Shown in pieces: positions 9,001-14,838 of a stretch of 64,000 nt of DNA. Both the position numbers and the translations under genes were made by a program. The notes beneath the pieces were generated by a model, which saw only the letters and a list, made by a program, of their open reading frames with translations, had not been told where the DNA came from and did not search any database. Source of the DNA: Catajapyx aquilonaris. Taxonomy: Eukaryota. The stretch covers positions 1 to 64,000 of the forward strand of contig JYFJ02000887.1 of NCBI GenBank assembly GCA_000934665.2. Reading direction: 5' to 3'. The stretch's first letter is position 1, and every line of letters begins with the position of its first letter.

Positions 9001-12000
9001 TTATTAATTGGTGAGATTCATTGTTACTAGTAATTAATAAGTAGAAACACACAGGGTAGAGGGTGTACCTTCACTGGAGCAACTGGGCCTTAGGGATTGC
9101 AGCTCTTTCTTCATATGAACCGAGCAGTCAAAAGTAACTTAACATTCTTGAACCATTGATGGTTCCAAGCTAAAAATAAAAACCAAGATAGTTGAAAATG
9201 GTAATTTGATTAGTGCAAATGGGTTTAAGTGTCTGTAGTTGGGCAGATGGAGGTTGTAACTTATGTGCACATTTGCATAGCTGGCCATTCCCTCTTTCCA
9301 TCTCTAATGTTGTCAATATTTTGCATGTGGATGTGATATCTTCATATCTTTCCTACCTTCCTTCACTCACTCACCCGATTCCTTTCCTTTCCTGTAGTTA
9401 CCTCTGCCTAATGGCTGCAATTGCCAGTGAGGCTGACTGTGCCTTCTTTCCTGAATCTCCCCCACTGCCTGGCTGGGAAGAGAAACTCTGCAAAGTGCTC
9501 CAGAAGGCAAGCTTGCCATGCACTTTTTAATTGTGTTTTGCCATGCCATGTGTCAGCCTCGCTTAACAGCTTTGCCACATTTGACATATAAATTGGTTTA
9601 ACTTTTAATTTGCCTACCTGCAGGAACGCAAGACTGGCCAGAGACTGAACATCATAATTGTGGCAGAGGGAGCTATAGACCGGGAAGGAGAGCCCATCAC
9701 TGCAGAGAGAGTGAGGCAGGTAGTAGTGGACAACCTGAAGCAGGACACACGTATCACTGTGCTGGGTCACGTCCAGAGAGGAGGCAGTGCATCAGCATTC
9801 GACAGAGTCCTTGTAAGTTTTTCAAGAGTGGTTTTTCAATGCTAAACTCTCCTGAGAGTTATGAAGCATAAATGTTATGACCAATAATTGAGGGCAAATG
9901 ATGTACAGGGATCGACAGGGATACTCTTGAGGATATGAATGTAGAACTTGGTATCATTTGTCATGTTCACTAGGGTGTGGCCAAGCCAGAATGGCAATAG
10001 ATTGCTACTTCTTTACCCAGTCCTGAAAAGGATCCTTTCTTAAGATATGAGCCAGCATATATTAATTGCAACCAAATAACTTTTGTCTGTATTAAAGTCA
10101 ACCCTTCTTCTCAGTGTGCATCTTCATATATTTTGCCAGGGTTGCCGCATGGGTGCAGAGGCTGTGCTGGCACTCATGGAAGCCACACCAGACACAGAGG
10201 CATGTGTTGTGTCTCTGGATGGCAACCAGGCAGTGAGGGTACCTTTGATGGCATGTGTGGAGAAGACTCAAGAGGTAGCCAAAGCTATGGCTGAGAAGAA
10301 GTGGGATCTGGCTGTGGAGCTCAGAGGAAGGTGGGTTATCTTAGGTAGAGGTTAAGCTCTACTGCTATATGCTGTATTTAATGATTAATTGAATTGCATC
10401 ATTCAGAGCACTGAGATTGCTTGCAGAAAAGTTCACATTTCCTTGCAAACTGTTATCTAGTGTGCTGGTAATTGTGTACACTGTACTCCTGATTATCTGG
10501 GTGACGATTATTGGTTCATAGCCTACAAATAAAATTAAAAATAAAAGTCCGAAAAAATGTCGTTATGTTGCAAACAAGGAAACATAACGGACTGTTTCTA
10601 TAAGACAAACTAAGAATCTATGGAAAGTTTTATTTTTTAATTTAAACCTTATTTTAAGCAGGATAAACTATGTACAATAGTACATTAAAAACCTGTGAAT
10701 AGCTCACTTTTATGGTATCTAGGACCATTTTAGGATTATCCATGTTTTCTGATTATTATCCGGTGACACCCGTACATTCATTAGCCGGGATAATCGAGAG
10801 TACAGTGTACTTATGGGAATGGCTTTTTGAAGACTCTCCTAATTTGTACTTATTGTGCTACTGATGCTAATTTTTTCAGGAGCTTCTCTCGTAATTTGGA
10901 AACATTCAAAATGCTGACCCGCCTCAAACCTCCCAAGCTTTCTACAGAAGAAGTTGACAGGGCATCAGTGAGTTCACAAATCTTTTGTTTGCACTTGTTC
11001 ATTGCTAATAATCTAACATTGGCCCTTTTTTTACATTGTTGATTTGATTTGTGATGCATTAACAACTGACAACAGAAAGTTTCAAGGGTGAGTTTAAATT
11101 GCATACTAATACTCTTGGTGATGGTGATGTTTATGGTACTGCCTGTAACATGCTTGATTAATGTTTTTTCCATTTGAGTTTTAGAGCACATAGCCTAAAA
11201 TAAGGTGATGCTTCTCACTACTACGCATTTCATTTGCCTAGTAGCAAGTAACACATGCTTGCTTAAATTCCATCCCCATTTCATCATTTCCATTTGCCAA
11301 ATTTTTTCCTTTTATGTGATCAGAGTGATGCACTTTATTTATGCATATTATCATGCATGATGTTGTAAAGTCATTGTAATGCATGTTAAGAATTTGGCTT
11401 AGGATAAATTAAAGGAAAAATATTAATTAATTACAAGTACACACATTACAAGTGGACACTGGTCCACTAATAGTTATGCAAAAAAGTAATTGTAACTTGG
11501 CAATTATGAAGCAGGGCATTAAGCATTTTTAAAAAGTCGATTGTGTTGTATGTGGGTGCACACCTTCAAGGGACACTCCACTCAAAATACAAGTTGAATT
11601 CTAAAAATCGGGCAAAAAATCCTGATTCCGAGGGTATAAGCAGTTTTCCTGAGAGACGAACGGTAAGGCCACGGCGAGCCGTCAAAGTTCGGAAATTCGA
11701 ATCTGGCGCAAAAGAGCTGCCCGCCCGGGCCAGTCCGCTCCCTCCGCGCGCGCCGCCAATCGGGACCTGGCAGAAAATGCCTGACATCTCAGCCGTCTTT
11801 GGTCCACGCCATATTTGGGCCGCACGGGTGTCGGGCCGTGGGTTTGCGCCAATTTTGAAGGGGGTTTCCGTGGGCGGCATGCTACCTATTACCCTGGACA
11901 GTAAATCTGCTCACCACAGCACTGTGACTTTACGGGCCAGGGCTGGGCCAGGGTTTAGACTGTGTCCTGACTGTTTATGAAAGGCCCACATATGTGGGCC

Positions 12001-14838: not shown

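Follow-up and report, generated by a model that had tools for sequence, protein, structure and literature searches.

Putative alternative microexons in the phosphofructokinase linker of Catajapyx aquilonaris coincide with paired inserts in other arthropods and may form a split phosphorylation site

Glycolysis is controlled mainly at ATP-dependent 6-phosphofructokinase (PFK), whose regulation in arthropods has, to our knowledge, been described through small-molecule effectors rather than phosphorylation. The PFK gene considered here lies on the plus strand, at about 3000-14838, of a 64,000-nt stretch of DNA from Catajapyx aquilonaris (hereafter the window; assembly GCA_000934665.2, contig JYFJ02000887.1, positions 1-64,000, forward strand), and the element in question is a pair of candidate microexons in the intron that separates its N- and C-terminal halves. 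Splicing is described as retuning rate-controlling glycolytic enzymes through the mutually exclusive exons of PKM1/PKM2 and PFKP (bioRxiv 10.1101/292813). PKM and PFKP swap a whole exon within a domain, whereas the window microexons would extend an inter-domain linker by a short linear motif.

Two further systems bear on the splice signals and on the encoded motif. Fly exons dependent on eMIC are characterized in the main text of Torres-Mendez et al. 2022 (PMC8797185) by long AG-exclusion zones, UGC near the 3' splice site, UCUC-rich tracts, strong branch points and weak 5' splice sites; Pfk has no occurrence in that main text, the supplements being outside this scope. The autophosphorylation peptide of CaMKII is given as MHRQETVDCLK in passages of PMC12461680, according to which its phosphorylated form is bound by the 14-3-3 phosphothreonine-binding domain in a biosensor.

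The window gene belongs to the two-half eukaryotic PFKs, as indicated by its match to the Pfam PFK family (PF00365) and its homology to animal PFK1. Window exons cover residues 18-802 of the PFK designated P0110 (tblastn), and arthropod PFK aligns end to end with the human PFKM, PFKP and PFKL structures. The N-terminal (catalytic) half ends in a constitutive exon at 10880..10967 (plus strand; ..EEVDRAS, donor TCA/GTGAGT), and the first exon of the C-terminal (regulatory) half, at 13119..13733 (plus strand), matches PF00365 with an E value of 2.1e-72; both boundaries are supported by a joint in a transcript contig (10967>13119). The intron between the halves, 10968-13118, measures 2151 nt.

Two phase-0 microexon candidates had been proposed in this intron in a preliminary description of the locus, and their coordinates, frames and splice signals all stand. 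Microexon 1 (11076..11087, plus strand; 12 nt, AAAGTTTCAAGG) encodes KVSR between an acceptor ..caacAG and a donor AGG/GTGAGT, and microexon 2 (13019..13039, plus strand; 21 nt) encodes QDTLWGS between an acceptor ..cccctgcAG and a donor TCG/GTAAGG. Each is close to one flanking exon, from which it is separated by an intron of 108 nt (10968..11075, where the sole AG is the donor's own) or 79 nt (13040..13118). The middle intron between the microexons measures 1931 nt and is mostly occupied by a transposon-like element of 1189 bp. Because both segments are in phase 0 and have lengths that are multiples of three, all four inclusion combinations are in frame.

Sequence comparison places both predicted segments at the site of two separable inserts in the PFK isoforms of other arthropods. 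A homologue search with exon 13119-13739 as the query returned 120 arthropod PFKs, 76-81% identical to this exon, with nothing closer; the protein set was enlarged to 272 by two linker-centred searches and one cluster look-up, and comprised 174 proteins at the stage of motif counting. The best identity of the window PFK over 571 residues is 72-75%; Collembola stand at 69%. The pattern Q[DENS][TS][LMIV]W occurs in the linker of 34 of the 174 proteins, and the inserts lie between ..LTRLKPP plus linker and ..LAVMH[IV]GAP, at a position matching the window intron. In the relatives, the first piece has 2-6 residues, with a final K or R and a hydrophobic residue two places earlier, and the second has 7 residues, in frame, of the form Q-[DEN]-[TS]-hydrophobic-W-x-x; KVSR fits the former and QDTLWGS the latter. 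QDTLWGS is identical at 7/7 residues to the insert of Zootermopsis nevadensis isoform X3 (..PS-LCK-QDTLWGS-SEGY) and shares 6/7 residues with the inserts of aphids, thrips and Ischnura. KVSR resembles in shape the first inserts SLNR, KLPK, SALKK and KGRLLK, and its 12 nt are as in aphids and Ischnura. A search of arthropod PFKs for SRQDTLW, which the preliminary description had suggested, was positive in spirit, [KR]QDTLW being widespread.

The microexon pair is already contained in the automatic RefSeq/UniProt isoform models of many arthropods (for example, Zootermopsis X3, Acyrthosiphon pisum X2, Frankliniella occidentalis X1-X5, Ischnura elegans X2, Daphnia carinata X2-X4 and Procambarus clarkii X3/X11), which share with the window the gene, the site and a two-piece build in which the first piece ends in K/R and the second starts with Q. 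They differ from it in the flanking linker, the window continuing downstream with SSHT.. and the models having ..SAFDExGRG. and EGYT.., and they are unpublished predictions, whereas the window form is known from genomic sequence, its transcript contig skipping both microexons. The models also display the inserts one at a time. Daktulosphaira isoforms of 788, 792 and 799 aa carry none, SLNR and SLNR+QDTLWGQ, respectively (..GRGL/SLNR/QDTLWGQ/EGY..); Frankliniella isoforms carry none, QDTLWGQ or SALKK+QDTLWGQ (..GRGV/SALKK/QDTLWGQ/EGY..); and those of Daphnia carinata carry none, KGRLLK or KGRLLK+QETMWMQ (..THA/KGRLLK/QETMWMQ/SGY..). The double insert is also encoded by transcript-sized contigs (P0142, 3119 nt; P0160, 3372 nt).

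Taxa with the insert include Hemiptera, Thysanoptera, Odonata, Blattodea, many Coleoptera, chalcid wasps (VLTK-QYTMWGQ), Ephemeroptera (as a variant), Branchiopoda, Decapoda, Stomatopoda, Amphipoda and a barnacle, with a variant also in Artemia. Among the PFKs inspected, those of Lepidoptera, mosquitoes, Musca, spiders and Varroa showed no such insert, these being protein models in which loss and missed annotation look alike, and human muscle PFK has no counterpart, an 18-residue gap standing at this point of the linker in the alignment. In a gene tree built by a quick search from 36 of the 174 proteins, picked to span taxa, the window PFK falls outside the winged insects, the insect clade without it having an SH-aLRT (Shimodaira-Hasegawa-like approximate likelihood ratio test) support of 99; its grouping with branchiopods and insects is unresolved, and its terminal branch measures 0.34 changes per column. 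The retained identity of QDTLWGS therefore spans a deep divergence, and the window adds a deep lineage to the carriers of the pair.

Several other PFKs vary the arrangement at this site. In decapods, two alternative second pieces follow a common ..[LM][IV]R, either QNT[IV]WDRD.. or an acidic SDSEE/SDSDD.., as in Procambarus X3 (..PMVR/SDSDDATEGE) and X11 (..PMVR/QNTIWDRDALL; P0139/P0140 versus P0159), and similarly in Macrobrachium nipponense (P0149) and Panulirus (P0162). This suggests a mutually exclusive pair, in which the R-x-x-S/T spacing is the sole feature that the acidic form (R/SDSEE.., R/SDSDD..) has in common with the Q-form; the acidic piece presumably has a CK2-like flavour. Inserts that resemble the first piece and lack Q-x-T-x-W occur as QLK or QQLK in Limulus, SEKR in a Limulus paralogue, GQLNK in Folsomia and VMAKQ in a Logan transcript (P0109, P0176 and P0242, Limulus; P0244, Folsomia; P0190, Logan), the Limulus pair QLK/QQLK resembling a NAGNAG-type acceptor choice. 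Because these first-piece-like inserts stand without a second, the first piece may be the older of the two. Sandfly PFK isoforms have a different insert of 7-8 residues at the same site, RLSGIKN in Phlebotomus (P0006) and RLIGGIKN in Sergentomyia (P0223).

An intron of this size offers many short open segments, and both microexons could in principle be chance AG..GT pairs of no biological meaning: there are 51 open phase-0 candidates of 3-30 nt in it. QDTLWGS, however, arises from one of them alone, and it is the same as the Zootermopsis insert at the same site and nearly identical to those of many taxa. Among 3000 shuffled introns, produced by a simple dinucleotide-preserving routine, a loose form of the second insert, with Q-x-[TS]-[LMIV]-[WC] opening a candidate of 21-33 nt, was found in one. 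Chance as an account of both segments is accordingly left with next to no probability and is effectively refuted for microexon 2, which is very probably a real exon.

Microexon 1 is probably a real exon too, on weaker support than microexon 2. It could be that microexon 2 alone is real and that KVSR is a fortuitous AG..GT pair, the first insert being absent in this lineage or situated elsewhere in the intron. A candidate with the first-insert pattern (9-18 nt, ending in hydrophobic-x-K/R) occurred in 1507/3000 shuffles when the donor was ignored, no RNA support was found in the transcript contigs of this species, and the polypyrimidine content before the microexon 1 acceptor (0.53) is the lowest of the eight acceptors compared. 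When a GT[AG]AG donor was also demanded, in contrast, only 40/3000 shuffles yielded a candidate, and KVSR, with its consensus donor GTGAGT, is the sole one in the real intron to fit. Its 108-nt upstream intron is wholly AG-free and contains CTAAC, its length is that of the aphid and Ischnura first inserts, and it fills positions -5 and -3 of the joint motif described below with V and R, the arrangement found in 25/35 other linkers. An origin of KVSR by chance is thus considered unlikely. A competing segment for microexon 1, LCKK at 11474 (12 nt), was rejected for its 19-nt AG-free zone, GTAATT donor and wrong register, and GWAR at 11941 (12 nt), located within the transposon, for its poor acceptor and donor.

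The transcript evidence consists of one public run (X1, of unrecorded kind), used as assembled contigs and compared with 8100-14900. A 2771-nt contig with zero mismatches skips six introns, five at GT..AG boundaries and one at a GC..AG boundary, and, given these spliced joints, is read as derived from cDNA. It joins 10967 directly to 13119, so that an mRNA that skips both microexons exists in this species and is its default form. No joints to either microexon were found among the X1 contigs, which leave 12867-13093 without cover and drop rare variants; because of the latter, the contig shows that the skipping form exists and says nothing on the absence of inclusion. A 252-nt X1 contig at 11163-11414 is wholly intronic, lies 3' of microexon 1 and spans two TGCATG hexamers; its depth is 4.4 versus 37.9 for the mRNA contig, and it may represent unspliced precursor or a separate transcript.

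Since the sole transcript contig skips both segments, they might also be relics, ancestral exons that are now always skipped in this lineage, and the apparent lack of the insert in the inspected Lepidoptera, mosquito, Musca, spider and Varroa proteins suggests that loss occurs. An unused 21-nt segment would, however, not be expected to retain 7/7 codons together with an acceptor, a donor and an 85-nt pyrimidine-rich AG-free tract, and such decay is regarded as very improbable.

If both microexons are included, the linker reads ..DRAS-KVSR-QDTLWGS-SSH.. and contains the joint motif V(-5) S R(-3) Q D T(0) L(+1) W(+2). Microexon 1 supplies the hydrophobic residue at -5 and the basic residue at -3, and microexon 2 supplies the threonine, the hydrophobic residue at +1 and the tryptophan at +2. 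The conservation of this arrangement was counted in 36 distinct linkers with [LMIV]W, reduced to 35 by the removal of P0074, an annotation artefact. S/T occupies position 0 in 34 of the 35 linkers, K/R position -3 in 29 and L/I/V/M/F position -5 in 25, with all three together in 25; variation at position 0 is nearly always from T to S, and of the six linkers that lack K/R at -3, two belong to isoforms with the second insert alone. In most cases the first insert contributes the basic residue and the second the threonine. The element hydrophobic-x-R-Q-x-T-hydrophobic, which the preliminary description had picked out in the window, is therefore conserved across inserts, and these appear to be arranged as a basophilic kinase site would be, with the recognition residues in the first piece and the acceptor in the second.

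Kinases of the CaMKII type recognize hydrophobic(-5)-x-R/K(-3)-x-x-S/T(0)-hydrophobic(+1), and V-S-R-Q-D-T-L of the window fits this consensus, as a consensus match only. Several CaMK-group and PKD-type kinases have in common the combination of R at -3 and a hydrophobic residue at -5; the assignment to CaMKII is thus held loosely, and CaMKII itself is rather unlikely to be the kinase. Compared with M-H-R-Q-E-T-V in the CaMKII peptide as quoted from PMC12461680, the window motif agrees in the hydrophobic residue at -5, R at -3, Q at -2, an acidic residue at -1, T at 0 and a hydrophobic residue at +1, and L-A-K-Q-E-T-L of Daphnia is closer still; the W at +2 of the PFK insert has no counterpart there, and the likeness is that of a short motif only. 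The binding of the phosphorylated CaMKII peptide by 14-3-3, in the same passages, suggests one possible read-out for the PFK insert.

The preliminary description had further proposed a strict AND-gate, possibly at work in neurons or muscle, in which the phosphorylation site is gained by joint inclusion only. The residues do divide in this way in the window, where the second exon alone would put S at -3 and R at -5 and the first alone would lack Q-D-T-L-W; since microexon 1 gives the recognition residues and microexon 2 the acceptor, a full site would need both. As a rule of splicing, the gate is not borne out. Isoform models with the first insert only exist in Daktulosphaira (X3), Daphnia carinata (X2) and Neocloeon (X2), and models with the second only in Frankliniella (X4/X5), Ladona and Cylas (X3). 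With all four combinations represented among the models, the two exons appear to be spliced independently of each other and not to form an obligate pair.

We favour the reading that the segments are two genuine, evolutionarily old alternative microexons of arthropod PFK with a role as a phospho-switch, and give this statement as a whole a probability of about 0.5. Inclusion would lengthen the linker between the catalytic N-terminal half and the regulatory C-terminal half by 4 and 7 residues, and double inclusion would equip it with hydrophobic(-5)-x-[K/R](-3)-Q-[D/N/E]-[T/S](0)-[L/I/M/V](+1)-W(+2), whose threonine would serve as phospho-acceptor for a basophilic kinase of the CaMK group (CaMKII-like, with PKD-like alternatives), making the insert a tissue- or state-specific regulatory handle on PFK. 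The observations are the sequence, the splice signals, the homology, the motif conservation and the skipping isoform; use of the exons in this species, phosphorylation by a given kinase, the tissue and any enzymatic effect are inferred. The chances that the motif is phosphorylated in vivo are put at about even.

Several points weigh against the favoured reading, in addition to the skipping contig and the ease with which KVSR-like candidates arise when the donor is ignored. W at +2 is near-invariant in the insert, and we know of no kinase consensus that explains it. The motif is degenerate in Leptinotarsa (KKDILW, without S/T), Psylliodes (E at -3), Agrilus (N at -5), Diorhabda (shifted by one residue) and Artemia (MQATLW, without a basic residue). 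K/R as the last codon (AAG, AGG) is partly favoured by the ..AG/GT splice consensus, and titles and abstracts in the literature, supplementary tables not having been searched, contain no phosphoproteomic or enzymological evidence for the motif.

The same points can be accommodated by microexons that are real and act independently of phosphorylation, with Q-D-T-L-W as a structural or docking element and the K/R in part a by-product of the splice site. The W might then pack against the enzyme or bind a partner, altering the allosteric coupling between the halves or the stability of the tetramer. No residue of the insert is more conserved than W, which is not known to belong to basophilic consensus motifs; Leptinotarsa retains D-I-L-W in the absence of S/T; the second-insert-only models of Frankliniella, Ladona and Cylas have no basic residue; and the last codons AAG and AGG suit the exon-end AG of a 5' splice site. 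A purely structural role, on the other hand, does not account for the retention of S/T in 34/35 linkers with change nearly always from T to S, or for K/R at -3 in 29/35 where Q/E (CAG, GAG), equally favoured for splicing, is nearly absent, and the alternative decapod piece has no W yet retains R-x-x-S. We regard a structural or docking role as a possible but not the expected explanation.

A more specific form of the phospho-switch reading is put forward tentatively. According to it, the pair is an ancient module that splits a CaMK-type site over two independently spliced exons at the PFK hinge, and a direct coupling of Ca2+/calmodulin or related signalling to glycolysis, at its committed step, would be confined to cells that include both. 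Such a module would go back at least to the ancestor shared by insects, branchiopods, malacostracans and barnacles, with the first piece probably the older, and the acidic second piece of decapods (R/SDSEE), mutually exclusive with the other, would be an addition of theirs.

The splice signals of the pair were compared with those of neuronal microexons under eMIC (Srrm234 / SRRM3-4) control. The preliminary description had noted a long AG-free zone and TGC motifs before each acceptor and had taken UGC just before the AG as a mark of such control. The AG-free zones measure 101 nt for microexon 1 (its whole upstream intron) and 85 nt for microexon 2, and are the longest among eight acceptors, the six constitutive ones confirmed by RNA having 22-78 nt (a small sample). 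The acceptor region of microexon 2 (12932..13018, plus strand) is pyrimidine-rich and AG-free, contains TCTCTC and three TGC, and ends in ctgcAG; microexon 1 is preceded by CTAAC at a distance of about 63 nt and by CTGAC at about 10 nt. Microexon 1 has a TGC at -21 and microexon 2 has three, at -33, -23 and -5, but TGC was demoted from a specific mark to a compatible one, as it also lies within 25 nt of the AG at 3/6 constitutive acceptors of this gene.

Two TGCATG hexamers, at 11354 and 11380 (11354..11385, plus strand; about 270-300 nt 3' of microexon 1), are present as the preliminary description had noted but are not enriched over chance: two on the plus strand of a 2151-nt intron is near expectation, the window as a whole has 59 against an expected 55 +/- 8, and a Rbfox-type signal was discarded.

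In relation to the eMIC-dependent exons of the fly study, as its main text describes them, the window pair is alike in size (12 and 21 nt, that is, 27 nt or less), and in preserving the frame, and may be so in its long AG-free zones and UGC near the 3' splice site, in the UCUC-type tract of microexon 2 and in the branch-point-like CTAAC of microexon 1; it differs in its donors, which are strong in the window and weak in the fly exons (PMC8797185). The cis features appear compatible with eMIC control, microexon 2 fitting qualitatively and microexon 1 in part, although actual neural or eMIC control of the pair is judged somewhat doubtful.

The remaining features of the window stand apart from the pair. 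The transposon-like element of the middle intron (11568..12756, strand not assigned; 1189 bp) has 153-nt terminal inverted repeats that are 96% complementary and includes a perfect 37+37-nt palindrome at 11955-12028. Many X1 contigs match parts of it at 90-95%, so that it appears multicopy and transcribed; it is outside the microexon mechanism. Further upstream, the PFK gene contains three tandem, similar copies of an exon of about 110 nt, of the mutually exclusive type (8274-8381, 8580-8689 and 9399-9506, ends approximate), which recalls the PKM/PFKP-type splicing outlined in the preprint cited above. The second copy is used in the X1 transcript contig, and the intron that follows it, 8690-9623, is of the GC..AG type (GAG/GCAAGG .. 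ctgcAG). On the minus strand, 21206-33738 holds a run of long low-complexity open frames rich in Q/H/S/T/P, with several LxxLL-like strings (for example, ..LRNLLLTKR..); none of these frames has a Pfam match, and they may belong to a gene for a large disordered nuclear protein.

Papers that describe the PFK linker inserts or their motif were not found among titles and abstracts, supplementary tables lying outside that search. For annotation, exons of 12 and 21 nt are easily overlooked, and the default transcript of this species lacks both. If the insert is truly lost in Lepidoptera and Diptera, this could explain why the module has escaped attention in model insects from these two orders; the conserved split motif together with its absence from Lepidoptera and Diptera models makes a reasonable hypothesis of moderate interest. 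The pair would be a natural example of a linear motif built from two separately regulated microexons. If the favoured reading is true, an optional 11-residue insert in the PFK linker would tie signalling and alternative splicing to glycolytic flux in excitable or specialised tissues.

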